From: Candidatus Woesearchaeota archaeon | Lineage (GTDB): Archaea > Nanobdellota > Nanobdellia > Woesearchaeales > CAZJJJ01 | Direction: 5' to 3' | DNA length: 53,764 bases | NCBI GenBank assembly: GCA_046538795.1 | Contig: JBKHIF010000001.1 | Span: 1-53,764, forward strand | Shown: positions 30,457 to 52,000 of the stretch, piece by piece | Layout: each line of letters begins with the position of its first letter | Position numbering within the stretch: the first letter of the stretch is position 1 | Made by a program: the position numbers and the translations under genes | The notes under the pieces: generated by a model | Seen by the model: the letters and a program-made list of their open reading frames with translations, nothing else | What the model was told of the DNA's origin: nothing | The model's database searches: none

Positions 30457-31004
30457 TTTGCCTCAAAATAACCTTCTGTCGTATCTAAATTTACTGTTAC
30501 TGATTTTACCTCGATAATAAATTTTCCTTCTGCAGGTGATGATGGATCATCATCAATCAAAAGTACCTTTATCACTGGCCTCTGATTTATTTCCTGAGAG
30601 CTCTTATTCCAGTTTGAAGTTGAAAGTTCTATCCTTTGATCAAGAGTTTCTGAAACAAGCGATATCCTGAATGCATAATTAACAGAATCCAGCCTGAAAC
30701 ATTCATCAAGGTTTTGTTGGTTAAATTTATCAAGATCTATTATTCCTGGATATGCCCTGTTAACCTCATCACGATATACGAAACACGAAGGAGAAGATAT
30801 AAGCCTCTGCGAAAGTATGCTTTCCTCTACATCTTCATTCATCTTATATTTTTCACCAGTATCTACAGATACAAGAACTACAAACATGGCTGCTGTTATG
30901 CTTAAAGATAAAAAAAGAAATATTATGTGCATAGTGTCTTCTGCAATAGTTCCTTTTTTATTACTAAATACAGACTTCCTGAAAATTAGACTAATTCCGC
31001 TCAC
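30453..31004 (-). CDS. Pilin-like (class III signal) protein, 183 aa
   Basis: ..FSNKKG-TIAEDTMHIIFLFLSLSITAAMFVVLV. The only start that retains the signal is GTG at 31004. It overlaps the upstream gene by 14 nt. Confidence 0.65.
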   Translation of the reverse strand: MSGISLIFRKSVFSNKKGTIAEDTMHIIFLFLSLSITAAMFVVLVSVDTGEKYKMNEDVEESILSQRLISSPSCFVYRDEVNRAYPGIIDLDKFNQQNLDECFRLDSVNYAFRISLVSETLDQRIELSTSNWNKSSQEINQRPVIKVLLIDDDPSSPAEGKFIIEVKSVTVNLDTTEGYFEAK

Positions 31005-32001: not shown

Positions 32002-32087
32002 AGAGTATTTTTAGAGAAACGTGTTTATAAAATTAATGCCTTTGAAAAAAATAATCATCTAAAATATCCTGTAATTGTAGCAAAATA

Positions 32088-32870: not shown

Positions 32871-33124
32871 TTGCCTGCACCAGGACAATCAGGATTGTCA
32901 ACCTGTTGTTCTTTAGGAGGATTTGGGCCCTTGCAGGGATCTATAAGATCAACCACATTATCCCCATCCTTGTCTTTTGCATTGTTTATACTGTTTTGAA
33001 ATTCATCTGTTCCGTCCCCCATTCCACGAATAAAAATTACAAGAAGAACAGTCATTACAATCAAAAGTAATGCTGCTGAAACGATTATCGGCATTGTCAT
33101 CTCAAATCCTTTTTTTGATTTCAT
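32855..33124 (-). CDS. Small pilin-like protein (~89 aa) with a TSP3-like Ca-binding loop
   Basis: MKSKKG-FEMTMPIIVSAALLLIVMTVLLVIF. GGTGAT lies 5 nt upstream of ATG 33124. The C-terminal part DKDGDNVVDLIDPC resembles a thrombospondin type-3 repeat. Confidence 0.75.
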   Translation of the reverse strand: MKSKKGFEMTMPIIVSAALLLIVMTVLLVIFIRGMGDGTDEFQNSINNAKDKDGDNVVDLIDPCKGPNPPKEQQVDNPDCPGAGKWSMD

Positions 33125-33143
33125 GAATATCACCATCTAAATT

Positions 33144-34934: not shown

Positions 34935-34939
34935 CTCAA

Positions 34940-35095
34940 TTACCAAATCCTGAAAAATGCTTTGACTTTATCAAAAAGGCTTGTTCCAAAAATAGACAAT
35001 ATTATTATTCCTATGGTTAAAGCAAAAAGTATCAATATTATCTTTCCGAGATTCTCCATGATAAAATTTCCTTTTTTGGATTTTATTGTTTTCAT
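34940..35095 (-). CDS. Mini pilin-like protein, 51 aa (not in the ORF track)
   Basis: Hand-translated: MKTIKSKKGNFIMENLGKIILILFALTIGIIILSIFGTSLFDKVKAFFRIW. It has the same KSKKG-hydrophobic N-terminus as its neighbours and fills the gap between 34934 and 35106. Confidence 0.6.
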   Translation of the reverse strand: MKTIKSKKGNFIMENLGKIILILFALTIGIIILSIFGTSLFDKVKAFFRIW

Positions 35096-35105
35096 CTTTA
35101 CCATT

Positions 35106-36194
35106 TCAACCTTTCATACGTATTACTTCACATTCGTTTTCAATATCTTCAAGCTTCCCAATCATTATAAGAGACGACTTTGGATCTTCAGGATCAAACT
35201 CAAAATCCTTCAAAGCATCTTCATTCATGCCGTATGGATTATACTGGTTATAAAGATTAGCGCTTGACTCGCTTAATGGTTCAGGTATCCTTATTGCAAT
35301 CGCATATTGTGTTCCGCTATTAAAACCCTGATTTCCCACATTCTGGACAAGAAGGAGACCATCTTCATATCCATGTTCAGCTACATATTCAAAATATGTA
35401 TACGACTTATCTTTTTTAACACAGCACACATCATCTTTATCGCAAGTAAATTCAAAAGAACTTGTGTATTTTCTAAGGCCGTCAGGGCAATTATCTCCCT
35501 TGGATATGCATTCCCCCCCATTCATCTCACAGTTGTTTCGTCTTACATAATCCAACCCTGAAGAGCAATCTGGATCTTCTGAATCGATATATCCGTCATC
35601 GTCATCATCTATACCATTATTGCAGTAAGACTCCCTTAATTCAGGCTCAACCATATAAAGATTCTCGTACAGAAAAAGCTGAAGTGAAGAATGATCAAAT
35701 ATAGTATCGCCAGATCTTTTATAACCTGGCTGGCCGTAATTGCTCTCCTCGATTGATTTAGCTATGCCCGCATCATCTATGGTGAATATATAGCAGACAT
35801 GGCATTCATCTCCCCAATAATCTTTAAGCGTATCTTCATACAATCCCTCGCCAAACATATACCAGCACTTGACAGCATAATCACCTATGTTTCCCATTAT
35901 GCCTTCTATACTCATTTCATGAAGATCATCAGGTATTTCTCGTTCATAGCTGAAGCACTGAAGAGGGACTATCTTTTGTTCTCCTATAAGTCCGCCCGGC
36001 TTGCCGGGATCAATAGTATATTCATCTCTTGCAAAGACACTTACCCTGCATATTTCCTCCTGGCCTTTTTCCTGGACATTATCAGTAGTAAATATGGCAA
36101 ACCCTGACAAGACAAACATACTGCCAAGTATGAGAATTATAGTTACAAGTTTCTTAAGCGTCATATCTCCTTTCTTATTAGGGAAGCATAGCAT
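35106..36194 (-). CDS. Pilin-like protein (362 aa) with a MopE-like Asp-rich motif and a C-terminal CExxGGxC Cys module
   Basis: MLCFPNKKG-DMTLKKLVTIILILGSMFVLSGF. Motifs YCNNGIDDDDDGYIDSEDPDC and NCEMNGGECISKGDNCPDG...CDKDDVCC. Confidence 0.7.
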   Translation of the reverse strand: MLCFPNKKGDMTLKKLVTIILILGSMFVLSGFAIFTTDNVQEKGQEEICRVSVFARDEYTIDPGKPGGLIGEQKIVPLQCFSYEREIPDDLHEMSIEGIMGNIGDYAVKCWYMFGEGLYEDTLKDYWGDECHVCYIFTIDDAGIAKSIEESNYGQPGYKRSGDTIFDHSSLQLFLYENLYMVEPELRESYCNNGIDDDDDGYIDSEDPDCSSGLDYVRRNNCEMNGGECISKGDNCPDGLRKYTSSFEFTCDKDDVCCVKKDKSYTYFEYVAEHGYEDGLLLVQNVGNQGFNSGTQYAIAIRIPEPLSESSANLYNQYNPYGMNEDALKDFEFDPEDPKSSLIMIGKLEDIENECEVIRMKG

Positions 36195-36355: not shown

Positions 36356-36634
36356 TTAGCCGTCGCTTTCTTGGTTATCATCTTTATTCAGATTTATGCA
36401 GCAAACAGGTGTTGCATCACTGCATTCTGCGTTTATCTTGACAGAGGGCCAATCACAGGTTGCTTCACTCTGGCATGTTCCGCCTCTTGCTTCACAGCTA
36501 TCCTGCTCATTACTGAAGTTGAGCATCTTCTGTCCAAATATCGCAATAAGTATGATCATGACAAGAAGAGCAACAGCTGCAACAACAATTATATTTATGC
36601 TCATGCCCTGTGCTTTCTTATCTTTCATATTCAT
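36356..36634 (-). CDS. Small Cys-rich pilin-like protein (~92 aa), paralog of 36639..36935
   Basis: MNMKDKKAQG-MSINIIVVAAVALLVMIILIAIF, then SCEARGGTCQSEATC...C..VCC. The start is trimmed to ATG 36634, 4 nt after the upstream stop. Confidence 0.75.
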   Translation of the reverse strand: MNMKDKKAQGMSINIIVVAAVALLVMIILIAIFGQKMLNFSNEQDSCEARGGTCQSEATCDWPSVKINAECSDATPVCCINLNKDDNQESDG

Positions 36635-36638
36635 CAAC

Positions 36639-36935
36639 CTAGACAATGATGCAGCACTGCTCGTCATCATTAGGTTCGCCATTCATCCTGTAACAGACCA
36701 GATCATTTCGTCTCCTTCCTGTTGAAGATGGGCCATTTTCACTCTTTGCAATTGCATCGCACGAACCTCTTCCCAGATCAAAGCACTGCCCTCCTGCAGA
36801 TTCACAGGATTTTGCTTGAATATTAAATATGTTAAGCCTCCCCATAAAAATCAATGAGACTGTAACAAGAACAAGCAATGCAAGCGCTGCAATAATGATA
36901 AAATTCATGCTTAAATCAGCTTTCTTATTATTCAT
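36639..36935 (-). CDS. Small Cys-rich pilin-like protein (~98 aa); major-pilin candidate
   Basis: MNNKKAD-LSMNFIIIAALALLVLVTVSLIF, then SCESAGGQCFDLGRGSC...QCC. GAGGTG lies 7 nt upstream of ATG 36935. The track start at 36944 is GTG. Confidence 0.75.
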   Translation of the reverse strand: MNNKKADLSMNFIIIAALALLVLVTVSLIFMGRLNIFNIQAKSCESAGGQCFDLGRGSCDAIAKSENGPSSTGRRRNDLVCYRMNGEPNDDEQCCIIV

Positions 36936-36984
36936 GAAAGACACCTCTTGATGATGATTATCAAGTAGATAATTATCTTACTCC

Positions 36985-36993
36985 TATATAAAA
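36985..36993 (-). promoter_or_regulatory. TATA-box-like element in the only sizeable intergenic gap of the pilin array
   Basis: The minus strand reads TTTTATATA, ~50 nt upstream of ATG 36935, within the 119-nt gap 36936-37054. Confidence 0.35.
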
Positions 36994-37054
36994 TTTTTCA
37001 TATGGCAAGCGTAGTAAAAACAGTTTTTGATAAATGTTCTGACGTTGTGTGCTA

Positions 37055-37606
37055 TCAGTTGCATATCCAGGTCTCTATCACAAGAGTATTAGGATACAAA
37101 GGAAGAGGATGCCTATCCACCTTTCTTTCCTGCATAGGACACAAATCATCTACTGACTGCTGATCTGATGATGCAAACATCAAATCAGGTATCATATCTC
37201 CGTTTACAGACATGTTTATGAAATATTTTCTGTTCCAGACGCGAAGAGTATCTTCAAGTATCAGGTTTATGGTTTGGGAAGCGTACAAGCAGGAACTTTC
37301 GCCATTTTCACAATTTATCCTTGGATCATCAGGGTTTTTTGCGCAATCGACCAATAGATCTCCTATGTCAAGGTCATTGCAGTCTCTGGTCCTTGTGTTT
37401 ATTATTGCATTTATAGTATTACTTGCAAGCTCTGATTTCTGATAGCTCTGCCTTATTTCAGTTGGCCTGTTGTCAAGTTCTGATTTTATTACAAGAACCA
37501 ATGCGACAGATATAAGCATGACTATAAAAAGAAGTCCAAATACTTCTGCCTGAGCCTTTCTGCTTTTCTCTTCTTTTTTAAGCTGTTTGGTATTTTTTTT
37601 CGCCAT
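37055..37606 (-). CDS. Pilin-like (class III signal) protein, 183 aa
   Basis: ..KKEEKSRKAQ-AEVFGLLFIVMLISVALVLV, with 6 Cys in the mature part. Confidence 0.7.
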   Translation of the reverse strand: MAKKNTKQLKKEEKSRKAQAEVFGLLFIVMLISVALVLVIKSELDNRPTEIRQSYQKSELASNTINAIINTRTRDCNDLDIGDLLVDCAKNPDDPRINCENGESSCLYASQTINLILEDTLRVWNRKYFINMSVNGDMIPDLMFASSDQQSVDDLCPMQERKVDRHPLPLYPNTLVIETWICN

Positions 37607-37624
37607 GTTGAATATCTGAATATC

Positions 37625-38155
37625 TCACACTATACTTTTTCCAGGTTCATAATATAGGACTTCCATGTATCCAAAATAATAAGCCTTTTCTCTTGAATCA
37701 TATACAGATAATGGGAGCTGGATTGCGATTTGCGAAGTCTCTTCAAGCTCATTTTCATATAAAATCCAGGATCTTTGGTTTGGATATACTTCAGTAATAG
37801 TAATCATGCTATACCTGAAATAAGGATAATAATATTCCTGATTTTGTCTTAATATATCTTCAGCAGCTTCAACTTTCAGGAAATCAACGCAATTTTCTTT
37901 TTTTACATTATTGAAGCTGCATGCAACCTCAGGCAGGGTTGAAAAAATCTGGGCAAGCTGGACAGTCTCCCTGCTTGTCTGTTCTGACTGTATGTTCTGT
38001 ACATTGCCTTTTTGCCATCTCACATAAAAAACAAGACCAAATATAAGAAGGATAAGAAATATAAAAAGCACCATTATGGTCTCGCCCATCTTGATGTCCT
38101 GTGCTTTTTTACTGATGTTGAATATTTTATAATGATCTTTTTTCATCCATATCAT
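37625..38155 (-). CDS. Pilin-like (class III signal) protein, 176 aa
   Basis: ..FNISKKAQ-DIKMGETIMVLFIFLILLIFGLVF. Confidence 0.7.
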   Translation of the reverse strand: MIWMKKDHYKIFNISKKAQDIKMGETIMVLFIFLILLIFGLVFYVRWQKGNVQNIQSEQTSRETVQLAQIFSTLPEVACSFNNVKKENCVDFLKVEAAEDILRQNQEYYYPYFRYSMITITEVYPNQRSWILYENELEETSQIAIQLPLSVYDSREKAYYFGYMEVLYYEPGKSIV

Positions 38156-38159
38156 CTTC

Positions 38160-39260
38160 TCAATAGATTACATCACAGCTTTTTATCTGTGCTTCCTGGT
38201 TCTGATCTTTTAAGCTTTCTGCATAGCTTATCATGTTTGCATATTCATCCATATAATCTCCTGAATTCATGATTTCATAAGAAGATTCATTTATATCCCT
38301 GAATATGTTTCGTGCAGCACTATATACGCTTGAACACGCAGGATCATGCTCTATTGTACGATAATATACCTGCATATCTATTATTTTTTCCCAAAATACA
38401 TTGTTTATGTAATTAAGCCTCCTGAAAGCCTTTCTCATATTGCAGTCATAATACTCTTTTGTATCTGAAAATACTGCCCCGAAAAGCGATGCAGAACCCA
38501 GGTAATATGATTCAGCAAAAGCATTTGATCCAGAATCTATTATTTCCGCTTCATAAAATCTCAACTCTCCGTTTTCATAAGGCGCATCAGAAAAAAAGGG
38601 AATGATCGAAATCGCTGATACCTTATTTCCCTTATCAAGAAACTCCTCTCTCAAAAAAGCAAGATCATTTGCTTGAACACCCATGCTAAGATAAATGACC
38701 CGTGTATTCATGTCATTCAAATTATAGATATCTCCAATATCAGTATAATAATCAGCAGTAAAATGATTTGGAATAGTATCATTGATATATTCCTTCAAAA
38801 CCACTGACCCAGCATTACCTTCATCATACAAGAAAATATAACGTGATTGTGTTGACGAGATAAATAGAAAATTCATGATGCTGTACGGAAGATTCCAGTT
38901 ATATGACCAGGTGACAAGATTCTGACCTTTAAGTTCCATAGGAGCAAAAGTAACATCTGACGATATCTGTGTTGTAAGTCCTGACACCTCATAGACAGAA
39001 TATCCTGAATCTTCACATATAAAATTAATTTCTATGTCAGAAGTCCTTATGAGTGAAGAAGTGCCTGAACCCAGCCTTGCTCCTTCAAATATAGATGCAA
39101 GGTTTTCTTTCACTCTTGCATTTATCGCAACAGTTGCAGAAGATTTTTGCCTTACTGCCATCATTGTAAAAAAACCAAGTATCACAGCACCGGCTACAAG
39201 AATGAATATCCAATTAAACTGCACAGTTATCTGAGCTTTTTTTCTTGATTCAAAGATCAT
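38160..39260 (-). CDS. Pilin-like (class III signal) protein, 366 aa
   Basis: MIFESRKKAQ-ITVQFNWIFILVAGAVILGFFTMMAV. Confidence 0.7.
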   Translation of the reverse strand: MIFESRKKAQITVQFNWIFILVAGAVILGFFTMMAVRQKSSATVAINARVKENLASIFEGARLGSGTSSLIRTSDIEINFICEDSGYSVYEVSGLTTQISSDVTFAPMELKGQNLVTWSYNWNLPYSIMNFLFISSTQSRYIFLYDEGNAGSVVLKEYINDTIPNHFTADYYTDIGDIYNLNDMNTRVIYLSMGVQANDLAFLREEFLDKGNKVSAISIIPFFSDAPYENGELRFYEAEIIDSGSNAFAESYYLGSASLFGAVFSDTKEYYDCNMRKAFRRLNYINNVFWEKIIDMQVYYRTIEHDPACSSVYSAARNIFRDINESSYEIMNSGDYMDEYANMISYAESLKDQNQEAQIKSCDVIY

Positions 39261-39279
39261 GGTAAAATCACACGATTAA

Positions 39280-39804
39280 TCAGGAAAAGCTTATGATTGC
39301 CTTGTTGCCTCTTCCTTCAGCCCAAAATACAACCCTCGAGCGCTTCTCATCAATACACACATATCCACCCTCAATCTCAATCTTATCTACATGAAAAGAT
39401 GCACCTGCATATCTGTCAACAAGAAATACATTTCTTCCTTCAGGACCCATCCACCCCTGTGAATCTTTCCAGTAATTATAGATCACAGGATATTTGCTTT
39501 TAAAAGAAGTATCAGATATCTCATCAGGATGTTTTCCAAGATCTATTATGCATAACTTGTCAAAATTTCCCGGCATCAAAAGGTTTATCTCTTTTCTTGA
39601 TCTGTATTCCTGGGTTATAGCATCAATCTCATTTTGAAGAGTATTTTTAAATTTCACATAATTGATATCGTTTCCCTGTTTCATGACTCCGCCGATTATT
39701 TTTGAACCAAAAAAAACGACAAAACCGATCATAAATAAAGTCATCACCATCATAAGAACATGAGACTGCGGCTGTCCTTTCCTGTTTTTAAATAAAAGCA
39801 TCAT
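39280..39804 (-). CDS. Pilin-like (class III signal) protein, 174 aa
   Basis: MMLLFKNRKGQ-PQSHVLMMVMTLFMIGFVVFF. The ATG overlaps the TGA stop of the 2063-aa gene (ATGA), implying translational coupling. Confidence 0.7.
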   Translation of the reverse strand: MMLLFKNRKGQPQSHVLMMVMTLFMIGFVVFFGSKIIGGVMKQGNDINYVKFKNTLQNEIDAITQEYRSRKEINLLMPGNFDKLCIIDLGKHPDEISDTSFKSKYPVIYNYWKDSQGWMGPEGRNVFLVDRYAGASFHVDKIEIEGGYVCIDEKRSRVVFWAEGRGNKAIISFS

Positions 39805-42800
39805 TTACGTCCACCTTTTGAAGACTGGCTTGATTGTTTCTTTCTGTTTTGGGTCTTATTTGAAATCTGTTTTTTTGATGAATCAGCTTTTGAAGCAGAT
39901 GGTCTGGTTCCCATATCTCCTATATCATCAAAAAGACCATTTATATCTTTTTCTGAAACATGTTTTATTTTGTCTGTCTGTTGTTCTTTTTGAGCGATGT
40001 CTTTTTTTAGCATCTTAGTGAAATCTTCTGAAGAAATTTCAGCAGGATTATCTGTTTCTTTAGATTGAAGTTTCTTTTCTTCTTCCATCTCTTTTTTTAT
40101 ATCTTCATCAAATCCGCTCATGTCAAAAACATCTTTTCTATCCTTATTCTGAGAATTCTTGCTATTATCAGTAAAACCATTATTCTGGGATGCTTGTTTC
40201 AAAAAAGTGTCCTGTGTATTTTCAGAATCTTTTTTCTGCATATTTTTTTGCATGTTTTCAGCAGGAATTTGTATTGATTGGATGTTCTTTTTTAGTGTTT
40301 CAGAAGCTGATCCTGGCTTTTTATCTTTAACTTCTGTTGATTTATCTGAAACCTTGCTCTTATTGTTGTCAAAAGATGACATTGCATTTTTTGAAGCATT
40401 TCCTGAAAATGGTTTCTGTCCTTGAGTTTTTGCAGAACTATTTTTGTCAGAACCAGATAATTTCAAATCATCTTTGGAAATATCCTTTGAATTGTCATTT
40501 GATGTATCTAATATATTTGACCCATAATCATTTGAAAACGATGAGAAAATATCATCTCTTTTTTTCTTTGACTGCTTTGTCCTGAAATTTTTCAGAAGAT
40601 TTTGACCAGGCGTCTTGTTGCTCAATCCCAGATCATCTTTCTTACCAAGACCCAGCGCGTTTCCGATTCCATGACCAATGTTCTGCATGGCATCAGAAAA
40701 TCCTCCCCAAGCTCCCTGAGGCTGGCTTGCAACCTCAGATTTTGCGTCCATTGACTGAGATGCGTCAGACATTCTGTTTCCATCCAGATCAAGACCTGTT
40801 CTGCCAGGATCTTTTGGAAGCCAGGAACCCGGGGTATAATGAGGTATCTCAATATTTGCTTTCCTGAAGAAATCTCTTACCCCCTTATCATCAAGGAACT
40901 GGTCAAATTCAGTCATCCACTTATCTACATAAGGCATTATCTCATAACGCTTCCAGTAAACTACATATCCTCCGCCGCCAAGAAGGAGAAGTATTATCAA
41001 AATTATTATTATCCATGTCCATGGAGAACCAGGCTTGTCATCAGGATCAAGATTGTTTCTCTCTTCCCAACGATCAGTCATTCCATCATTGTCACGGTCA
41101 CTGTCCCTTCCTGAAGAACCAGACTCATCTTCAGGATCATCTTCTTCAGGTTCAGGATTCGTATAGCCAGAACCATCTGATCTTTTGCACCTATCCCGCA
41201 TGCAATTATTTGTCTTGCAATCAGAATCTTCTTCGCAGTCTGAATCAACCTCACAGGCAGGACATGAACCGCCACAATCTATGTCGCTTTCATCATTATT
41301 CTTAATTTCATCTGTGCAGGTTTCAGGAAGAGCTATGCATGTATTAGTCGAATCATCACAAAGCCCAGAACTACAGTCAGCATCCCTTGTGCAATCCATG
41401 TCAAGTTCACACTGTTCACAGCTTCCGCCGCAGTCAACATCGGTTTCATCATTATTCTTAACTCCATCAGAACAAGTATCAGGCATCTCAATGCATGTCA
41501 ATCCTAAAGGATCACATGAAGCTGAAATGCAGTCTCCAGAATCAAGGCAGTCCTCTCCTATGTCACACCCAGGACACGTTGGTCCGCCGCAGTCAGTATC
41601 TGATTCAAAACCATTGCTAATACCATCATCACATGTAGGAAGAGGAGCGCGGCATTTATTTTCATCAGGATCGCAATTTCCTGATATACAGTCTGAATCA
41701 TCCTCGCATCTGTCTCCGCTTGAACATTTTCCGCAATTTCCACCGCAATCAACATCAGTCTCATCGCCATTTTGTATGCCATCATTGCACGGATCAGAGA
41801 GGCATTTTAACAAGGTATCATGACAGAGATTATTTACACAGTCAGAATCAACAGAACAATTTAATCCTGTGCTGCATGGAGAACATGAGCCGCCGCAGTC
41901 AACATCGGTTTCATCATTATTCTTAACTCCATCTGAGCAGGATTCATCCAATTCGACCCTGCAAGTTCCATCTACGCAATCATAATTATGACAATCTGTA
42001 TTTACAAGACAAGATAGCCCGGGATCACATCTCTGAAAATCAGGAGATGATTTGCATGAGCCGCCGCAGTCAACATCGGTCTCATCGCCATTTTGTATGC
42101 CATCATCGCATGAGGGGGTTGCACACATATCAGTAGAATTGCAAAAACCATTTGCACAATCAGAATCTGATGTGCAGTTCAAACCATCTTGGCATTTAAG
42201 ACAGCTTCCGCCGCAGTCAACATCGCTTTCATCCTGATTCTTAACGCCATCAGAACACGTTTGAGGAATTACCTGACAGGTATCTGAAGATCCGCATATC
42301 ATTCCATTCTGGCAATCTTCATCTTCATTGCAGTTCTTGCCTGAACCGCATCCTGAACAAGAACCTCCACAATCAACATCGGTCTCAAGACCGTTTCTTT
42401 TTCCATCAGAGCATGTAGGTTTTGCGCAAAAACCTGCATCAGAATCACAATATAATCCTGTTTTGCAATCATTTCCAGTGCTGCAATTCTGGCCTTCATC
42501 GCATCTTCCACACTCACCACCGCAGTCTATATCTGTTTCTCCATAATCTGGATTGTAATCTCCGTTCTGGCAGTAAGGAGGAATTGTCAAAACTCCGCAT
42601 ATTCCTGTGTCAAGACAGGTTCCGCTCATACAGTCAGAATCAAGATTGCAGTCATCTCCATTTTCACAATTCTTGCATGGTCCTCCGCAGTCAATATCGC
42701 TTTCTCCTGAATTCAATTCTCCATTTGAGCATGATTCTTCAATACAATTTCCTGTGACTGGATCACAGATCTCTGACCAGCAATCAGAATCAACAGAACA

Positions 42801-45800
42801 ATTAAGACCATCTGGACAAGCTCCGCATTCTTCACCGCCGCAATCAACATCGGTCTCAAGACCATCAATAACTTCATTAGAACATGTATCAGGAACCTCT
42901 TCAGCACAGGAAATTCCATCAACACAATTATAATTTTCGCAGTCAGTATTCACTTTGCATGATTCACCTGATGCACACCTCTGGAAATGAGGATAAGATT
43001 TGCATGTGTTTCCACCGCAGTCAACATCGGTCTCAAGACCATTTTGCACCTCATCAGAGCATGTTGGTGATGTGCAAAATCCTAAAGCATTGCAAAAATT
43101 GCTTCTGCAGTCTGAATCTGAATCACATTCCATCTGATTTTCACATGCTAAACAACTTCCACCGCAGTCAACATCGGTTTCATCATTATTCTTAACTCCA
43201 TCAGAACAAGTTGCTGGAATAACCTGACATGTTCCTGAAGAATCGCAGTGAAGTCCTGATGAGCAATCTGAATCAAAATTACATCTCTTGTTTAGACCGC
43301 ATTGATCGCAATTTCCTCCGCAGTCAATATCTGTTTCAAGACCATTTTCTCTATTATCATTGCAAGAAGGTCTTGAACATACCTCATTTGTACAAAATAA
43401 TCCTGTATAACAATCTGAATCAGAAGTGCAGTTCTTTCCTTCAGGGCATCCCGGACAATCTCCACCGCAATCAATATCAGCCTCCCCTGATTCAAAGATG
43501 CCGTTTTCACATTGTGCCAAAACAGGCTCATCATGGCACCTGCCATTATAACACTCTCCGGAAATGCAGTCACTGTCTATTTCGCAATAATTTCCATCTT
43601 CACATGGTCCACATATTCCGCCGCAATCAACATCAGTCTCGCCATCATCAATCACATCATTAGTACAAGGATCTTCAACACATAATCCTGAATCACATAT
43701 GTTTGACTGGCAGTCTGAATCTGAATTGCATGATTTGCCATTAGCACACGCTCCACAGGTTGTTCCACCGCAATCAACATCACTTTCAGTGCCATCTTTC
43801 TCATCATTGCTGCATGTTGCCGGAGTTTCCTGACAAAGTCCATCACTGCAAAGATAGCTTTGACAGTCAGTATTTACCTTGCAGTTATCTCCGCCTTCAC
43901 ATCTCAAATAATGAGGATAAGATTTGCAGTTTTCACCCCCGCAATCCTCATCTGTTTCTTTGTTATTTACAAAACCATCGTAGCATGTAGCTTCAGCGCA
44001 ATAACCAAATTCATCTCCATCATTGTCAGGATGACAAAACAGGCCGCTAAGGCAATCTGAATCTTCTCTGCATTGTTCCCCTTCTGTACATTTCCAGCAG
44101 TTTCCGCCGCAGTCAATATCGCTTTCCTCTCCGTTAAGTATATTGTCATCACATTCAGGATCCTTTTCTCCACACACATTATTTTCTGATCTGCATATGT
44201 ATATAGGACCCTGACAGTCTGAATCATATTCACAATTTTTTCCAGGACTACATGGACCGCATGAGCCTCCGCAGTCAACATCAGTCTCATCTCCATTCTG
44301 CCTGTTGTCATCACATCTAGGAACAGCGCAGACATCATTTGAATTGCAGTAAAGCTCGCTTGTGCAGTCGGAATCCTCTTCACACCCTGCACCCTCAGTA
44401 CATCTTGCGCAGCTTCCACCGCAGTCTGTACCAGTCTCATCTCCGTCAATCACACCATTATGGCAAAATACACCCGGATCTTCACACTTTCCAAAGATGC
44501 AAGGCATTGAGTCACAGTCAGAGTAAGAATTACACATCTGTCCATGACCGCATTTCAAATTACAATCTCCACCGCAGTCAACATCAGATTCAGAAGATAA
44601 AGAAGAAATCTCTCCATCAGAACACAATGCTTCAAAACTTTGGCATATTCCTTCTCCGCAAAAAAGACCATACTGGCAGTCATCTTCTGATATGCATCCT
44701 TCTCCCAAAGGACATCCCGGACAATCTCCGCCGCAGTCGATATTTCCATCAAGAGAACCAGTTTCGCCATCCCTTGCTCTTATTACTCCATCTATGCAAT
44801 GGCCAGGAGGATCAGAACATACACCGCCATCGCAATATCCGCTCTGGCAGTCTGTATGTTCATTGCATGATCTGCCTTCAGCACAAAGTATGCCCTCTTC
44901 TCTGCAGGTTCCGCCGCAGTCAAGGTCAGTTTCCCCATAATTTTGAATCTCATCATTGCAATGATCAAGAACAGAACTATCTACTGTCACCCCATCACTT
45001 GACATGACTGTGCTTTCTTTTCCCGCAAAATCTATTGCAAGAACCCTTACATCATATGTAATTCCATTATTTAGTGAAAGTCCTTCTATATCTAATTCAC
45101 ATTCAGCAGAACCATCATTATCATCAGATTCACAATAAGGACTCTCTGAAACCACGATCGTTCTCGCATTTCCCATGGCTGCATCCTGCACATGGTACTT
45201 GAAACCATAAATACCTGATGTTGCATCCTGCCCTGAAAATTTTACATGAAGCTTGTCAGGAAAAGGGCTTGTCTCAGGATAATCCGGATCTATAGTTGTA
45301 TCATCAACTTCTATCATAGAAGGACTGTCTGTATCTATTATAGGATCTATCACCAAAGGAAATGAATCGCTTACAATGCCTTCTGCCTCGCTCCTGCACA
45401 CAATTTTCACAGGAGTTTCAGCTATTCTGGAAAAGGCTATCTGAAATCTGTTTTCCCCACTCGCATCATTCAAAGTATATGACATGTCATCAAAATCAGT
45501 AGTGCTGCCTTCTCCGCCTGATGCTCTGCATTCTGCTTCTCTGTTTGTCTCAACTATGATATCAAAATTCATATCCTGAACAAAATGAGATACTGGTTCT
45601 ATCGGAGTTATGGAAGTTGTCCCAAGATCTACCATGAAATAGAAATTGTCTGTTGTACCGCCAACATGTCCTGCATCATCAATCGCTGTAACACGAAACC
45701 AGTAGCGGTGAAATTCAATTAAAGGATCATCAGATCTGAAATAAAATGTCTGATTATCATCTTCTTTTGATTCAAGATGCAAAGGAACATCCTGATCATC

Positions 45801-45992
45801 TTCATTTCTCAAAAAATAGGTGCTTAATCGCACAGGTTCATTGAATACGACCTGTATTATGGGATGAAAATCATCCATGCATCTGTAATTTTCTTCTTCG
45901 ACGCACAAAAGATAATCTGCAGAAACAGAACTTAAACTGCTTAAAAGAAATAAAACTACAAAAATCAACAATACCTCTTTTTTCATATTCAT
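39801..45992 (-). CDS. Giant (2063 aa) type-I membrane protein: Sec signal, Ig/FN3-like N-domains, 24 Cys-rich DCGG modules, TSP3-like motif, TM helix, ~385-aa low-complexity cytoplasmic tail
   Basis: Signal MNMKKEVLLIFVVLFLLSSLSSVSA. The repeat consensus is C-x-[DN]-x(3-5)-[DE]-[ET]-[ST]-D-[VI]-D-C-G-G-x-C-x2-C-x2-G-x2-C-x3-[SD]-D-C-x-[SNT]-x2-C. Then DSDRDNDGMTDRWEE, the TM WTWIIIILIILLLLGGGGYVVYW followed by KRYE, and a K/S/N/Q/D-rich tail. Confidence 0.85.
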   Translation of the reverse strand: MNMKKEVLLIFVVLFLLSSLSSVSADYLLCVEEENYRCMDDFHPIIQVVFNEPVRLSTYFLRNEDDQDVPLHLESKEDDNQTFYFRSDDPLIEFHRYWFRVTAIDDAGHVGGTTDNFYFMVDLGTTSITPIEPVSHFVQDMNFDIIVETNREAECRASGGEGSTTDFDDMSYTLNDASGENRFQIAFSRIAETPVKIVCRSEAEGIVSDSFPLVIDPIIDTDSPSMIEVDDTTIDPDYPETSPFPDKLHVKFSGQDATSGIYGFKYHVQDAAMGNARTIVVSESPYCESDDNDGSAECELDIEGLSLNNGITYDVRVLAIDFAGKESTVMSSDGVTVDSSVLDHCNDEIQNYGETDLDCGGTCREEGILCAEGRSCNEHTDCQSGYCDGGVCSDPPGHCIDGVIRARDGETGSLDGNIDCGGDCPGCPLGEGCISEDDCQYGLFCGEGICQSFEALCSDGEISSLSSESDVDCGGDCNLKCGHGQMCNSYSDCDSMPCIFGKCEDPGVFCHNGVIDGDETGTDCGGSCARCTEGAGCEEDSDCTSELYCNSNDVCAVPRCDDNRQNGDETDVDCGGSCGPCSPGKNCEYDSDCQGPIYICRSENNVCGEKDPECDDNILNGEESDIDCGGNCWKCTEGEQCREDSDCLSGLFCHPDNDGDEFGYCAEATCYDGFVNNKETDEDCGGENCKSYPHYLRCEGGDNCKVNTDCQSYLCSDGLCQETPATCSNDEKDGTESDVDCGGTTCGACANGKSCNSDSDCQSNICDSGLCVEDPCTNDVIDDGETDVDCGGICGPCEDGNYCEIDSDCISGECYNGRCHDEPVLAQCENGIFESGEADIDCGGDCPGCPEGKNCTSDSDCYTGLFCTNEVCSRPSCNDNRENGLETDIDCGGNCDQCGLNKRCNFDSDCSSGLHCDSSGTCQVIPATCSDGVKNNDETDVDCGGSCLACENQMECDSDSDCRSNFCNALGFCTSPTCSDEVQNGLETDVDCGGNTCKSYPHFQRCASGESCKVNTDCENYNCVDGISCAEEVPDTCSNEVIDGLETDVDCGGEECGACPDGLNCSVDSDCWSEICDPVTGNCIEESCSNGELNSGESDIDCGGPCKNCENGDDCNLDSDCMSGTCLDTGICGVLTIPPYCQNGDYNPDYGETDIDCGGECGRCDEGQNCSTGNDCKTGLYCDSDAGFCAKPTCSDGKRNGLETDVDCGGSCSGCGSGKNCNEDEDCQNGMICGSSDTCQVIPQTCSDGVKNQDESDVDCGGSCLKCQDGLNCTSDSDCANGFCNSTDMCATPSCDDGIQNGDETDVDCGGSCKSSPDFQRCDPGLSCLVNTDCHNYDCVDGTCRVELDESCSDGVKNNDETDVDCGGSCSPCSTGLNCSVDSDCVNNLCHDTLLKCLSDPCNDGIQNGDETDVDCGGNCGKCSSGDRCEDDSDCISGNCDPDENKCRAPLPTCDDGISNGFESDTDCGGPTCPGCDIGEDCLDSGDCISASCDPLGLTCIEMPDTCSDGVKNNDETDVDCGGSCEQCELDMDCTRDADCSSGLCDDSTNTCIALPETCTDEIKNNDESDIDCGGSCPACEVDSDCEEDSDCKTNNCMRDRCKRSDGSGYTNPEPEEDDPEDESGSSGRDSDRDNDGMTDRWEERNNLDPDDKPGSPWTWIIIILIILLLLGGGGYVVYWKRYEIMPYVDKWMTEFDQFLDDKGVRDFFRKANIEIPHYTPGSWLPKDPGRTGLDLDGNRMSDASQSMDAKSEVASQPQGAWGGFSDAMQNIGHGIGNALGLGKKDDLGLSNKTPGQNLLKNFRTKQSKKKRDDIFSSFSNDYGSNILDTSNDNSKDISKDDLKLSGSDKNSSAKTQGQKPFSGNASKNAMSSFDNNKSKVSDKSTEVKDKKPGSASETLKKNIQSIQIPAENMQKNMQKKDSENTQDTFLKQASQNNGFTDNSKNSQNKDRKDVFDMSGFDEDIKKEMEEEKKLQSKETDNPAEISSEDFTKMLKKDIAQKEQQTDKIKHVSEKDINGLFDDIGDMGTRPSASKADSSKKQISNKTQNRKKQSSQSSKGGRK
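41185..44960 (-). repeat. Array of 24 tandem ~43-codon Cys-rich modules with a 6-module super-repeat
   Basis: 24 occurrences of D-x-D-C-G-G counted in the translation. The variant module CGG..CKS(Y/S)P(H/D)(Y/F)(L/Q)RC...C(K/L)VNTDC.(S/N)Y.C recurs as modules 7, 13 and 19. DNA segments of 45-50 nt are near-identical at 41425, 41890 and 43159. Confidence 0.9.
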
Positions 45993-46045: not shown

Positions 46046-49000
46046 TTATCTGTTTAGGAAGTACTGGCTTCTCAAAAGATAAATCTCTGGCACAGGAGGT
46101 TCAAAGTCGATATAATCAATAGCAAACTCTATATCTTCTGAAGCACCACCTATTCCTGATGCATCGCAGTCCACTCTGAATGTATAATTTTGCTGCATAT
46201 CAAGACCTGATGCAATATCTTCAGGAATATCTCCTGAATCAGAATCAAGACCTGAAAGAAGAGCAGAATGTCTGAAATAACCACCCATATCCTCTGATTC
46301 AAGTTCTGAATGTTCTGCAAATACGTTATTTATGAAATCAAAGATAAACGCAAAAATACCATCAGATTCCTTGATATATGTTGCTGTGCATTCTGCTTTT
46401 CTGTATGTGTTTACACTAAGCTCTGGATTAAGAGTCCTGATAGTTCCTGTTGGTTCAGGATCAAATATTATAACATCATGATCAAGATCAATCTCGATAT
46501 CGAATCTTCCTGACCTTGATTCCTGCATTGCTTTATCCTTGCATCTTATATAAACAGGAGTTGAAGCTCCTTCTTCCATGTGTATAGCTATCCTTGGATG
46601 AAGAAGATACATATCATGATCATCTGAAAAATATCTCATCTCATCATACGATGCATCATTATAATCCCACTTGCATTTTACAAATTCATCTGCATTGACA
46701 GTGATCATGGCAACAGGATGTTTTACGATAAGATAGCTTCCATCTTCCTCAAGATGACCTTCCACATCTATTGATCTTATCTCAGGATCACGTGAATCAA
46801 CCTTGATCTCTTCTGTAATTTTTGCTACATTTCTTGCCTTATCCCTGCAAATAACTCTTATTATAGCTGTTCCAGATGCATCTGTATATATGCTGTTTTC
46901 AATATCAAGCTTGTGCTCTTTCCTGAAGTAAGGATTGTCCCCATTATTGAACAATTCAGAGACAAGATTGCCATCAGAATCAAAGTATTCGGCAGAACAA
47001 TGAGCATCCTCATCTGTATCTATCCTTATAGGCTCGGTTGTATCTTCAACATCAAGAGGATGAAGAGTTATCTCAGGAGCAGCATCATCACGCACTATCT
47101 TTACATATCTTGGACTTGCTGAATCCACATAAAGATAATAATGGTTTTCTCCATAGTCAAGACCTGTTATTGTTCTTGTTCCTGAACCGCTTCCTATGTT
47201 AAGAGAAATTTCCTCTTGTACATCATATAACCTTACCCGCTGTGATTCTGAAGACGAAAATCTAAGTTCAACAAAAGAATCTTTTGTATAATATTCATCT
47301 GAACCCGATGGAACCTCTATTGCTCCATCAATCGTTGTTATCTCAGCATCAGGATTTCCAAAAGAAACCTCAAAAGGCAAGTTATACGTTGATGAAGGAT
47401 TTCCTGAATTATCAATTGCAATCACATTAAGAACATAGCTGCCTGAACTAAGACTTCCTAAGATAATCTTGTTCTGATCTAAGATGACGCCTTCAGAATC
47501 TACCATCACATCAGGATCTTCTTCTGATGAACTTACAGAATAGCTATATCCTTTAAGACCGCTTCCTTCTTCTTCAACACTAACATCGAATATCAACAGG
47601 TTATTTGGATTTCTTGAAATCGAATTGATAACAGGAGCAGTATTATCATAATAGAATTCTTGTGGATCTGCTGGCCGGGTGACGATTTTTGTTGTATCAT
47701 CTTCATCAAAACATCTCACCCAATAACCAAAGAGCCCTTCATCTCTATCTGATATTTCAATCCTGTGCGTAAGTCCTGTGGACAAGTCTTCATCATAATC
47801 TTCATAACTGTTTCCACGAACTCCTTTTCTGAAAAGAGCATATTCGCATCCATAATAATTATTAGTCTTTGCTTCCAGAGTAAAAGAATCTCCATTCACA
47901 TATCCGCTTGGACTTATATTTAGTATGTCAAGCCTGCTTTTTCCATTCACCCTGAATACAAGATTATCTGCATAAGCTTTGTTTCCTGCCCTGTCCTGAC
48001 AAGCTATGTCAATATAATAGTCTCCTGCAGGAGCAGGAATTCCCCTGAAATCAAAAGATCTTTCCTGATTCCTCTGGAAATCACTGTTTCCAAAGAAATC
48101 ATCCTCAAAAGGACAAACTGAATTAGGGCTTCTGCATTCAAATCTACATACAATATCATCTGGATCAAGGCTTGCATCAGATACAGTTATTCTTGGATTT
48201 ATCTCTGTCTCATCCCCTGAGAACACATCAAGGAAATATTCCTGTATGCCTGGCTGGGTTTCCACATTAAGTTCTCCGGAACTGCTTTTAAGAAGAAGCT
48301 TGGGAATCTTTGTATCTATTATGAAATCAAACGCTTCCATATATTCCTGGCCTGTTGCAACACCGACACATTTTACACTAAATCCATAATCACCATCTAT
48401 AAAGTATTCTTCAAGAAGATATTCATGGATTCGTCCATTCTCGCTTGCAATCATAGGCTCAAAATCACTGTCAACTGAATTGTTTCCATCATCATCCATG
48501 TCAAGACGAAAATAACATTCAGAATTATCTGTTGTCCTGAAAGTATGCAGCGAATTCCTGTTTTGGTTTGTATATCTTGAAGAGATCTGTTCAATATTCA
48601 CAGGTTCATCAGGATTTGGAACAATATTAAAATCAAAGCGCTCTCTTGCATTAAAACCAAATTTGTCTTTTGCTGAAACAACAAGGGAATAATTTCCGAC
48701 CCTGTAATCATAAAGACCTGAATCATCCATGTTTGGAACAATCTCATCTGAAAAATCAAGATCAGTTAAAGGATCTTCCGGATTGGCAAAAGAGTATATT
48801 ATGTGAGGGTCCATTGAGATGCATGGTCCTGAATTGCACTCTATCCTTATATCAACAGATTGAAGTTCATGAGACCAGTTCACATCAGAAATACGTACTG
48901 ACACTGAAAAAGGATCCTTATAATATATCTCTGAACCGGTTATGCTGCCAGTATCTTCTATAAGAGGAGGAGCATCATCATAATGTATGTTTATTATGGT

Positions 49001-52000
49001 TTCATTGATGTTTCCCACACCATCCTCTGCATATATTCTAAGGGCATATCTTGTATCGTCCATCCCCAATGTTTCAAGGTTCCAGTTTCTGGAAAAAGGA
49101 TAGATGCCTCCGCTCAGACTTTCAATAGGGAAATTAGTCCTCATCCTGTTTTGTTTATTCCATATTTCTGCATATAATGAAACAAGACTATTGCTTTCAA
49201 CAACATTTCCTGAAAGCTGAATAATATTAGATGTAGTAATAAAATCATATTCATTTTCATTTTCAGTTGAAATAAGAGAAGATTCTTCAGGAAGATCCAT
49301 ATTGATTACAGGAGCAGAAAGATCAGCCACTATATCTATGCATTTTACTTCTTCAAAATTTCCACCATTATCAATTCCATGGAAACAGACTTTTCTAACA
49401 GTATCTATCAAAAGCCCTTCAGCAGGAAGATCATAAGCATTAAGATTAGGATCGCAGGAATCATCGCCTATGTTTGTTACGCAGTATCTGACATCATCAT
49501 CTTCACATCCAAATACATAAGAAGGATTTCCCTCTATAGGAGAATCGTCACAACCAAAAGTAACTAAAGCCCCGCTGTTTATATTCATATGGCCGCTTTC
49601 TTCAAAAATTAGTTCTTCCTGACCCTCGACATTTACAATAGCTCTTGAAACAGGCGGTAAGAAATCTGTAGAAAATCTTGCTTCCTTTACCATCTCTTCG
49701 CCTGTAAGCTCATCTACACATCTTGCATAGAATTCTCCATCAAGATAAAGCTTGTTTCTTTGAAGCTCTGGCCAACCCGAAGGAAAATCAAGATAAAAGT
49801 GTTTATTAGCCTCAAAATGATCTTCTGAGTAATTCGGATCAAGCAGGAACTGGACATATCGTTCATTTGCCGGATCGCGCGCATCATAGAAACTGCATTC
49901 TGCATTTTCTTCTGTTGTAATGAAAAACTGCGGAGTAAGCGTACCTACAGTTCCTGGAGGAAGAGAAGGCATAGTGAAATTTATGCTCATGTATGCATCA
50001 ACAACAATATTGTGATCCCTATTTGAAGTATCATAATAATCATTGAAATTTCTAAATTGATCATAACAAAACATCTTCAAGTGATAAGGTCCATCAGGCA
50101 GTTTTGTAAATTGCAGCTGAAATTCTCTTTTTTCAGATTCATATTGATTTTCAGGCGCATATAGATAATCATCTCCCAGATTAGGAGGATCTGTTTCAGG
50201 TGTTCCGGGAGGCATATATCTTCCTTCATGTCTTAAGTAGAATTCACATGTGGAAGTCTCATTCATTATGATGTCCAGAGTAAGATCAGAAAGAATCTCA
50301 TCTTCTGTGCTACTTGCATTTTCATGAACTTCATAACTCAAAAATTCAATTCCTGGCGGAGTATCATCAAGATAAATTTCCATTGATTCAAGCTTTGCAA
50401 AATTCAGATGTTCATCAGCTGCGATATATCTTAGATAATAAAAACCCTCATGACGATATACTCTATTATTTCCATTATATCTTGCACCCGGCGTAAAAGT
50501 AACTTTCCTTAAATTTTCTCCTCCGATGATTATATCTGTTGAAAAAGAAGGTGAACAAGTATTTGTCCTATCTATGCAATACATAAATCCAGCCATATCT
50601 CCAAAATTATTTGCCAATGGCTCTGATGCATAAAATTCAAAATCAACAGATCTCCTGTTGCCATCTTCTCCATAAATATAAAAACCGGTTTCAATCCCTA
50701 CGCCCCTTAATGTTACTGGAACAGTATCGTTTTGACAATTGATTCCATTTGCTCCGGCTTCAGAACAATCAGGTTCATCATTATCATTACCATCTTTGAT
50801 GCAATATCCGCCATTCCTGTGAGTTTCATCTGAAATCCACTTGCAAAAATTCTTTGAGCAAGGATCCGCACTGTAGGTTGCAACATCACCCAAAGCAGTA
50901 TAGCTTCCTGACTTTATATCTGCAATTGAGGAAGACAATGAAAATTCCTGACCTCCTGTGCAAGAGTATTCTGTTGTATAATCTGAACACGCATCATTTT
51001 CCTTGCAGGAAATGCAGCTGTCTCCATCAGAATAGCAGTAACCTATGAATTCGCAAAGTTCTGGAGTACAGCCCATATTTGAATTAAAAGGCGAGTTTTC
51101 CTTTGAACAAAGATTGCAGTTGCTGTCATCTTCAGGATCTGCCCTTTCATATTCTACACAGAAACCTTCTCCAAAACTCGAAAACCCTAATCCTATTGCA
51201 GGTATTTTTGAAAAATCAAGAGTTCCTGACGTTGTCTCAGAATCACGACCGTCGCCTGCAATCCAAACACAAGGAGACCCGCCGCCTACCATGCAATTGT
51301 CTATTTCACATGCTCCTTTTGTAGTGTAATCAGAACATCTATCATATTGCATGCAAGAAACACATCTATCAACAACAATTCCTTTTTCCATTGTGCAATA
51401 ATTATAATACCTGTTTCCATCGACATTTGATGCCTCGCCTGTAAGGAGATTTCCATAACAGTCTTCAGAGCTATAATAAAGTCCAAAAGGATCTGCCTCA
51501 AGAGTATCTATGTCGCATGCGCTCTGTTGTCTGCAGAAAGTATTTCCAAATTCATTGGGTCCTGAACAGACAAATCTTGGACCATAATCAGAACAATCCC
51601 AAAATGCCCTTCCTTCAGAATTATCTGTTTTTCCATATTCTTTAAAATTATTTTCGTTGCATTGATATCTATATATTGGAACAGCTGATGAGCCCATGCC
51701 GAAAAATTCCTCTGAACTGCAAAATTCTTGATTGCCATTTGAGAAGCTTTTGTCTTTGCATATGGCATCGCCTGTCCTGAATGTGACATTCGGAAACATT
51801 TCATGATCAAACTCAGCATAGATAGAACCTATAGATGTAAGTCCCTGAGAAGGTTGAGGCCTTCTTCCGTTTGCATAAAGAGGAACAACAGTATAATCAT
51901 ATTCCTGATCCCATTCATCAGATTGAGGATCTACAAAAGAATAAGTATTTGCAGGCACAGAACCAATTTTCCTGTATTCATCATCTCCATTAAGATCTCT

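Follow-up and report, generated by a model that had tools for sequence, protein, structure and literature searches.

A tandem array of 24 cysteine-rich DCGG modules in a giant membrane-anchored protein of a Woesearchaeota archaeon

What could 24 consecutive cysteine-rich modules contribute to a surface protein of a Woesearchaeota archaeon, and how would a reduced-genome archaeon carry out the oxidative folding of ~96 disulfides? Both questions are raised by a gene on a stretch of 53,764 nucleotides (nt) from Candidatus Woesearchaeota archaeon (contig JBKHIF010000001.1 of assembly GCA_046538795.1), which was analysed at its full length and is referred to here as the window. The product is labeled at NCBI as hypothetical protein ACLFUO_00195, Candidatus Woesearchaeota archaeon, with a start two codons later than the one we used, and the array occupies amino acids (aa) 345-1602 of it. 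The answer that we favor, with modest confidence, is that the array forms a disulfide-stapled, possibly Ca2+-stabilized stalk or spacer of a host-contact apparatus. The coordinates of the features are collected in Table 1.

A single open reading frame (ORF) contains exactly 24 CGG motifs at intervals of 49-61 aa, and a profile built from the units recovered 24 out of 24 modules, which bears out the original prediction of 24 consecutive modules. With unit boundaries set at the cysteine preceding each DCGG motif, the module cysteines run from nt 44960 (first) to nt 41187 (last), so that the interval of 41185-44960 given earlier is essentially exact. The dimensions of the repeat had been underestimated: the units are 44-59 aa long (mean ~52) and not ~43 aa, and each of the 24 contains eight cysteines and not seven, the earlier consensus having missed a final C-x(4-9)-C. 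As a result, a block of six units measures 308-325 aa instead of ~260 aa, and the cysteines number 192 in the array (15.3% of its residues) and 198 in the protein, instead of ~170. Successive modules are joined by linkers of 3-6 residues. A variant form starting with CKSYPH had been described for units 7, 13 and 19, and it does recur there (CKSYPHYLRC, CKSYPHFQRC and CKSSPDFQRC, respectively) without the C-x2-C after CGG. All eight cysteines are nevertheless retained, since C3-x8-C4 replaces C3-x2-C4; the variants thus differ by a six-residue insertion in the C3-C4 loop, with YPH[YF] conserved in phase. Unit 1 also lacks the CxxC (it has C-x6-C instead), and unit 2 carries an 8-aa insertion in its N-terminal half. 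All 24 units have D14, C15, G16, G17 and D33, and at least 90% of them have E10.

Five of the six N-x-S/T sequons of the array have the form N-C-[ST], with the Asn directly before C5 (aa 854, 1064, 1169, 1272 and 1378, in units 10, 14, 16, 18 and 20), and are possible N-glycosylation sites at a fixed position of the module. Several ORFs of 80-220 aa on the plus strand overlap the array (41185-45007; for example 41185-41823). Their translations are of low complexity and rich in S, Q, P and H. We rejected them as genes and regard them as shadow ORFs of the minus-strand gene.

The modules share the consensus C-x-D-G-x2-N-G-x-E-T-D-V-D-C-G-G-x-C-x2-C-x2-G-x2-C-x4-D-C-x-S-G-x-C-x2-G-x-C. The cysteine spacing of the family, C-x13-C-x3-4-C-x2-C-x5-C-x5-C-x4-C-x4-6-C, is followed in order by all 24 units, with the longer C3-C4 loop in units 1, 7, 13 and 19. 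Pfam-A contained no family for the protein at an expectation value (E) of ≤ 1, nor for isolated single or triple modules at E ≤ 10, NCBIfam gave nothing relevant for the protein, and neither collection held a module family matching the modules of the homologues. The earlier caution that no named family could be assigned was therefore justified. Extracellular arrays of disulfide-rich modules are well known; the DCGG module itself has no Pfam or NCBIfam model and no solved structure, and we found no description of the module or of the locus in the searched literature, including work on cysteine-rich proteins of DPANN archaea and Woesearchaeota and on archaeal type IV filaments.

A word-indexed search yielded 155 proteins, and the profile of the 24 units, run on the 120 of them that were listed, located 1,670 modules, with eight cysteines in 1,246 of the 1,302 full-length ones. 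We then ran a 126-module profile (A2) in an exhaustive HMMER search against 1.84 billion cluster representatives (50% identity). Of these, 16,653 matched at E ≤ 1e-3, and the number fell to 7,427 when the limit was set at 1e-10 and to 2,249 at 1e-30. In the score ranking the window protein took 7th place (812 bits, 24 stretches). Conservation was evaluated on 2,662 full-length modules from 241 proteins. The cysteine columns are conserved at 99-100%, E10 at 100%, D14 and G16 at 99%, G17 at 93% and D33 at 94%, followed by D/N3 (98%), N/D7 (91%), T/S11 (87%) and D12 (72%), and the loops between the cysteines are hypervariable. The module thus spans Bacteria, Archaea and Eukarya in at least 16,653 clusters (50% identity), and once it is defined, thousands of giant surface proteins now listed as "hypothetical", above all in Myxococcota, would gain an annotation.

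The hosts of the module were surveyed through the named sources of these proteins and by scanning species-representative genomes for DNA that encodes exactly E-T-D-V-D-C-G-G-x-C. They belong overwhelmingly to the Myxococcota, including the cultured Minicystis rosea, Sorangium and Paraliomyxa as well as Polyangiaceae, Sandaracinaceae, Nannocystaceae and Bradymonadales; further hosts are Candidatus Binatia and the green alga Monoraphidium. Several module proteins also carry PLAT and C2 domains, which suggests that these are of eukaryotic origin. The archaeal hosts include Woesearchaeota, Nanoarchaeota/Nanoarchaeia, Aenigmatarchaeota, Altiarchaeales and one Methanosarcinales metagenome-assembled genome (MAG). 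Proteins of Nanoarchaeota, Woesearchaeota, Altiarchaeales and the uncultured archaeon L047 contain 3-13 modules, usually just outside a membrane anchor, and those of Aenigmatarchaeota and the Methanosarcinales MAG contain 3-4. In Altiarchaeales L079, Nanoarchaeia L051 and the uncultured archaeon L047, 3-4 modules directly precede a transmembrane (TM) helix and a charged tail. The original prediction had considered so cysteine-rich a scaffold unusual for an archaeal surface protein. This is true of the 24 copies, which are extreme in archaea, but not of the module as such, given the 3-13 copies in other archaea. The array in the window is among the largest known and is the largest archaeal one in this analysis.

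Structure predictions were obtained with AlphaFold2 for unit 12 with alignment A2 and for units 12-14 with the 62-row alignment A3. The single module reached a mean predicted local distance difference test score (pLDDT) of 93.6, and the three-module model a pLDDT of 90.2 with a predicted template modeling score (pTM) of 0.61. The sole soft spot of the latter is the inserted C3-C4 loop of variant unit 13 (pLDDT 73), suggesting that the insertion forms a surface loop. The module has two halves. The N-terminal half (N-half) contains four cysteines and an acidic loop with the near-invariant E10 and D14. The C-terminal half (C-half), also with four cysteines, is predicted to adopt a knottin-like, disulfide-directed β-hairpin.

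The pairing of the cysteines was approached through natural cysteine-loss variants among 3,477 modules. Among them are 168 stand-alone N-halves (CCCC----) and 19 stand-alone C-halves; joint loss of C1 and C3 was seen in 61 modules, which come from many unrelated proteins, and joint loss of C5 and C7 in six. Because cysteines disappear in pairs and half-modules occur on their own, these variants imply a putative disulfide map of C1-C3, C2-C4, C5-C7 and C6-C8. The pairwise loss also favors disulfides over four-cysteine metal sites. Of the "disulfide or metal-binding scaffold" proposed earlier, the first part is therefore favored, while the correlated losses of C1/C3 and C5/C7 speak against cysteine-metal clusters. 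A metal-binding or redox scaffold, in which ~190 thiolates would sequester or shuttle Cu, Zn, Fe, Cd or electrons in the manner of metallothioneins or MopE, would agree with the cysteine content of 15.3%, with the one CxxC per module, with the lack of a disulfide-forming enzyme among the scanned window ORFs and with a possibly anoxic habitat that would disfavor disulfides. We nevertheless consider it quite unlikely, given the even number of cysteines in every module, their loss in pairs (C1 + C3, C5 + C7) rather than in fours and the autonomy of the half-modules. Furthermore, the confidently predicted knottin-like fold matches disulfide-stabilized peptides, no match was found to the MopE motif or to a metal-binding Pfam family, and His and Met are neither enriched in the consensus nor among the ten commonest residues of the array.

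When the one- and three-module models were searched with Foldseek against PDB and BFVD, the matches were confined to half-modules (24-38 columns overall). The last 24-29 residues of the module superposed on knottins and related disulfide-directed β-hairpins with a root-mean-square deviation of 0.7-1.1 Å, namely on U3-scytotoxin-Sth1a (5fzv), nemertide alpha-1 (6ena), atracotoxin, the squash inhibitor EETI-II (1w7z) and the baculovirus conotoxin-like peptide Ctl; colipase fitted more loosely. The target-normalized TM-score was 0.7-0.8 for the PDB toxins. The Foldseek E values were 0.09-5 against solved knottins and 0.09-10 for the knottin-type matches as a whole (best 0.09, none ≤ 0.001). The three-module model did not retrieve EGF, LDLa, furin-like/EGFR-CR, R-spondin or TNFR-type arrays, nor any tandem-array structure. 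The knottin-like part of the module reads C-x5-C-x4-C-x4-6-C with a conserved D before the second cysteine, and its presumed pairs C5-C7 and C6-C8 would be equivalent to the knot disulfides II-V and III-VI. An inhibitor cystine knot consists of disulfides I-IV, II-V and III-VI, the last of which threads the ring. The module differs in having no Cys IV, hence presumably no three-disulfide knot in its C-half, and its C4 would pair into the N-half; it is also repeated within a giant anchored protein instead of being a secreted peptide. These comparisons bear on whether the protein could be a polyprotein precursor, or a displayed array, of knottin-like inhibitors or toxins directed against host proteases or channels. 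The nearest structures are indeed spider, cone-snail and nemertean toxins, squash trypsin inhibitors and baculovirus conotoxin-like peptides, but we find such a role very improbable: the matches are insignificant (E 0.09-10) and cover half a module each, the third knot disulfide is missing in the absence of Cys IV, no dibasic or other obvious processing sites lie between the modules, the protein is membrane-anchored, and arrays also occur inside large multidomain proteins of myxobacteria.

A second likeness is that to Dickkopf and colipase (PF04706; Dkk1 CRD2, 3s2k; colipase, 1eth), with which the module shares a local G-x2-C-x3-[SD]-D-C-x-[SG]-x2-C hairpin (profile-to-PDB E 0.06-0.2; Foldseek TM-score of ~0.5 on the query). 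When sequence profiles were compared with the PDB, LEAP-2, Dkk1 CRD2, squash inhibitors and toxins were matched marginally and only locally, over the last ~20 residues (E 0.04-0.2). Dkk domains have ten conserved cysteines. The module has eight, and its N-half (DG..NG.ETDVDCGG) is without a Dickkopf counterpart. The hidden Markov model (HMM) of Dickkopf_N (PF04706, gathering score 25 bits) did not match the whole protein at E ≤ 1 or single and triple modules at E ≤ 10, and a sub-threshold match in homologue P0076 falls on a different repeat and not on the DCGG module. The Dickkopf-like spacing noted in the original prediction thus holds locally, for the last ~20 residues, and does not extend to family membership; judged from the sequences, the impression is that of a generic C-x5-C-x4-C-x5-C hairpin.

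In architecture, the array recalls the tandem calcium-binding EGF-like, LDLa and TSP3 arrays of fibrillin, Notch and thrombospondin, which are long arrays of small modules with a stalk role and offer a functional analogy. The DCGG module is likewise small, presumably disulfide-stapled and arranged head to tail, with a cluster of acidic and amide residues (D/N3, N/D7, E10, D12, D14) beside its cysteines, and bacterial TSP3 repeats co-occur with it in orthologues. However, its cysteine spacing and pairing differ from those of EGF, LDLa and TSP3, and the window protein and its modules gave no Pfam or fold match to them; no furin-like, EGF, LDLa or TSP3 repeat was found by Pfam in the window protein. 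The Myxococcus cysteine-rich repeat TIGR02232, DUF4215 (PF13948) and the MopE-type motif (PF11617) share with the module their main phylum and their occurrence in giant secreted proteins, sometimes in the same proteins (P0018, P0054, P0057, P0066, P0112-P0115). They are distinct HMM families, and none of the three matched the window protein in Pfam or NCBIfam.

How did the array reach its length? The original prediction held that it grew by duplication of a six-module block. From a MAFFT alignment of the 24 units we calculated identities between units at different lags, with significance assessed by shuffling the order of the units. At lag 6 the mean identity is 49.7%, and the other lags give 40-48%. 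Permutation returned p < 5e-5 when lag 6 was considered by itself, p = 0.0013 when the maximum over lags 1-12 was taken, and p = 0.005 once the variant units had been left out. The six-unit periodicity is therefore significant, though uneven among blocks. Blocks 2 and 3 (units 7-12 and 13-18) share 56.8% aa identity in register and 43-47% when shifted to any of the five other registers. For blocks 2/4 and 3/4 the value is only 50% in register against 42-48% shifted, and block 1 shows no in-register excess of identity. Clustering by the unweighted pair group method with arithmetic mean grouped units {7,13,19}, {8,9,14}, {10,16}, {11,17}, {12,18,20,23,24}, {3,15} and {5,21}. Of the mutual best matches proposed earlier (8/14/20 and 9/15/21), 8/14 is recovered, whereas unit 20 belongs with 12/18/23/24 and unit 9 with 8/14.

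A single six-module duplication, from units 7-12 to units 13-18, is thus the clear signal in the sequences. Growth by block duplication appears supported for units 7-18 and weakly supported for units 19-24, for which the periodicity comes mainly from the 13/19 variant pair; block 4 seems to have kept the phase of the variant module while being refilled with copies of the 12/18 type (units 20, 23 and 24). For units 1-6, block duplication is not supported by the in-register identities, and these units are too diverged to tell. The duplications are old: the nucleotide identity between paired units is 57-69%, with third codon positions near saturation and close to the array-wide background, and Tandem Repeats Finder detected no DNA tandem repeat in the array. 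Unequal recombination probably lengthened the array, with the old duplication of units 7-12 as its clearest trace. In a contig from a near-identical strain (L124, Logan SRR29060565, 8596 nt; the neighboring 366-aa protein is 99% identical), the assembly ends inside module 23. This suggests that assemblies from short reads tend to break within the array, and MAGs may therefore under-report its length.

Taken as a stalk, the array would consist of modules stacked head to tail with short linkers into a semi-rigid rod, resistant to protease and shear, with a length that we estimate at some tens of nanometers. Such a highly acidic and possibly Ca2+-stabilized stalk would project the N-terminal head away from the single C-terminal membrane anchor. 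The head itself probably consists of immunoglobulin-like (Ig-like) β-sandwich domains: Pfam matches it weakly to Big_5 (E 0.056), it is 31% identical to the N-terminal part of P0079, where a weak Big_13 match is present, and a word search returned no homologues for it. A spacer function is favored because a fixed disulfide scaffold is combined with variable loops, autonomous half-modules, short linkers, a membrane-proximal site, promiscuous fusion partners, and a copy number and repeat type that vary in orthologues. The net charge is -226 for the array and -276 for the whole protein, and Ca2+ stabilization of the modules is plausible in view of the near-invariant acidic and amide cluster of the N-half, the charge of the array and the TSP3-type companions.

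The same modules could, however, act as the binding units. In a multivalent adhesin, each module would bind a ligand, for example host glycans or envelope proteins in a Ca2+-dependent manner, through the acidic loop of the N-half or the hairpin, so that 24 copies would provide avidity and not reach. Knottin, colipase and Dickkopf-type hairpins, which the C-half resembles in fold, are classic binding surfaces. The hypervariable loops on a fixed scaffold, the extra six-residue surface loop of the variant modules with its in-phase YPH[YF], and the enrichment of the family in contact-dependent predators (Myxococcota, Bradymonadia) and episymbiont-type archaea all agree with such a role. We hold it to be possible but not probable. 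The arrays of homologues accompany dedicated binding domains, as is typical of linkers: those of Myxococcota are fused to CBM3 + PA14 + GLEYA, fibrinogen-like, DUF1566, VCBS/FG-GAP, LamG and RCC1 domains. In addition, copy number and even composition vary freely among syntenic orthologues, and the modules lie close to the membrane and not at the tip.

Besides the possibility that the modules themselves bind, several observations weigh against the stalk interpretation. The N-terminal head has no significant family, which makes a "binding head" an assumption; the sole support for Ca2+ binding comes from conserved acidic residues; and the pTM of the three-module model is just 0.61. None of the scanned window ORFs of at least 100 aa encodes a DsbA, VKOR or thioredoxin-like protein. 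Life without oxygen is common among DPANN archaea, and the formation of 96 disulfides in a possibly anoxic habitat is unexplained. Finally, no type IV filament assembly ATPase, platform protein or prepilin peptidase was found among the Pfam-scanned window ORFs, although these may lie elsewhere in the genome. Synteny and the type of signal peptide are thus all that defines the "apparatus".

Table 1 Features of the DCGG-module gene and of the surrounding cluster (positions in the window).
Feature	Position	Strand	Remarks
Whole gene	39801..45992	minus	2063-aa type I membrane protein
Sec-type signal peptide, aa 1-25	45918..45992	minus	MNMKKEVLLIFVVLFLLSSLSSVSA/DY; predicted from sequence, cleavage site judged by eye
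N-terminal distal "head", aa 26-344 (~320 aa)	44961..45917	minus	highly divergent
Block 1, modules 1-6, aa 345-669	43986..44960	minus	units nt 44799-44960, 44625-44798, 44466-44624, 44316-44465, 44154-44315, 43986-44153
Block 2, modules 7-12, aa 670-977	43062..43985	minus	units nt 43815-43985 (CKSYPHYLRC variant), 43668-43814, 43512-43667, 43365-43511, 43209-43364, 43062-43208
Block 3, modules 13-18, aa 978-1294	42111..43061	minus	units nt 42885-43061 (CKSYPHFQRC variant), 42732-42884, 42573-42731, 42414-42572, 42258-42413, 42111-42257
Block 4, modules 19-24, aa 1295-1602	41187..42110	minus	units nt 41940-42110 (CKSSPDFQRC variant), 41790-41939, 41634-41789, 41475-41633, 41319-41474, 41187-41318
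Acidic juxtamembrane linker, aa 1603-1657	41022..41186	minus	from sequence
TSP3-like motif D-x-D-x-D-G-x-x-D-x-W-E within linker	41037-41105	minus	DSDRDNDGMTDRWEERNNLDPDD; read from sequence
Single transmembrane helix, aa 1658-1680	40953..41021	minus	WTWIIIILIILLLLGGGGYVVYW, then KRY; read from sequence
Cytoplasmic tail, 383 aa	39804..40952	minus	low-complexity, K/S/D/N/Q-rich
Upstream syntenic partner	46046..53638	minus	2530-aa giant acidic surface protein; CarboxypepD_reg, Big_13; order shared with L121 and L123
Downstream syntenic partners	36356..39804	minus	six proteins (174, 366, 176, 183, 101, 108 aa) with class III (type IV pilin-like) signal peptides; collinear with L121 and L123
Rest of co-directional cluster	24043..36194	minus	more proteins with pilin-like leaders, M23 + C39_2 peptidase, SLT transglycosylase-domain protein
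SLT lytic-transglycosylase-domain protein, 900 aa	24043-26745	minus	SLT gene at equivalent place in L121
Peptidase_M23 + Peptidase_C39_2 protein, 653 aa	27845-29806	minus	M23/C39_2 gene at equivalent place in L125

The host-contact part of the stalk interpretation comes from the surroundings of the gene. The order giant surface protein, module protein, pilin-like proteins is common to three DPANN contigs (L121, Nanoarchaeota, and L123, Woesearchaeota, complete; L125, Woesearchaeota, partial). In L121 and L123 the best BLASTP matches are collinear for the giant protein, the module protein and the pilin-like proteins of 174, 366, 176 and 183 aa, and the two small cysteine-containing pilin-like products match a cluster of small pilins at the corresponding place. 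The partial contig L125 is collinear over the downstream genes and represents a closer relative; its 365-aa neighbor P0243 is 44% identical to the 366-aa protein of the window. About a dozen consecutive ORFs at 29842-39804 (minus strand) start with K-K-[GA]-[QDT] and a hydrophobic helix (174, 366, 176, 183, 101, 108, 362, 600, 266, 336, 183 and 204 aa), and nearly all downstream products of both the window and L121 carry class III (type IV pilin-like) signal peptides.

From its synteny, the cluster suggests a cell-contact apparatus of a DPANN archaeon, and the conserved genes might mediate attachment to, or penetration of, the host cell. To our knowledge, the molecular basis of DPANN host attachment is largely unknown; the syntenic cluster provides a concrete candidate for such host contact and is a more interesting lead than the array itself. 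The presence of peptidoglycan hydrolases in an archaeal cluster hints at a bacterial host or prey. A bolder scenario, which we regard as fairly improbable, would make the DCGG module an ancient Ca2+-dependent extracellular superfamily, shared (probably by horizontal transfer) by contact-dependent predators (Myxococcota, Bradymonadia), episymbiotic DPANN archaea and some algae. In DPANN archaea it would then serve as the length-tunable tether of a new pilin-associated host-attachment organelle, composed of giant surface proteins, a dozen pilin-like proteins and murein hydrolases, with 3-24 modules setting the distance between the membranes of symbiont and host.

The orthologues P0079 (Nanoarchaeota, 1928 aa, 13 modules) and P0114 (Woesearchaeota, 1185 aa, 3 modules) have the same layout as the window protein. 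Together with the partial product of L125 they share its signal peptide, Ig-like N-terminus, modules, TSP3-like motif, TM helix, charged tail and neighborhood. In contrast to the window protein, P0079 has many four-cysteine half-modules, and all orthologues are unannotated hypothetical proteins. At the position equivalent to the juxtamembrane linker, P0079 and P0114 have a Pfam match to TSP3_bac, while the TSP3-like motif of the window protein itself gave no Pfam match. The product encoded at 2-2836 of L125 (Logan SRR21285597) contains at least six repeats of ~105 aa, each made up of one DCGG module and TSP3-like DxDxDGxxDxWE...DxDxDG repeats, and this stalk is followed by a TM helix and a K/S tail. 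Charged tails comparable to that of the window protein are present in P0079, P0114, L047, L051, L079 and L125.

Strong acidity marks the exported proteins of the cluster (net charge -276 for the module protein, -283 for the giant protein and -93 for the SLT protein), whereas the cytoplasmic RadA, Cdc48, GatD/E and TruD have a net charge close to zero. In view of these near-neutral cytoplasmic proteins we rejected salt-in halophily as the cause of the acidity, which is specific to the surface proteome.

Some further features of the cluster were noted. The giant 2530-aa protein, which contains 3.2% cysteine and has a cysteine-rich N-terminal third, is syntenic with proteins of 2,510 aa in L121 and 2,985 aa in L123, which likewise contain CarboxypepD_reg and directly precede the module gene. 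The SLT and M23/C39_2 proteins have N-terminal membrane or pilin-like leaders. Two adjacent pilin-like paralogues of 108 and 101 aa (36356-36944, minus strand) each have six cysteines in a short C-terminal domain, and at the place of this pair L121 and L123 have three or four genes of ~85-112 aa. Elsewhere in the window, ARAGORN detected no tRNA, and Rfam matched one at 7498-7619 on the plus strand (46.6 bits); its length of 122 nt for a 71-position model implies a putative intron-containing archaeal tRNA.

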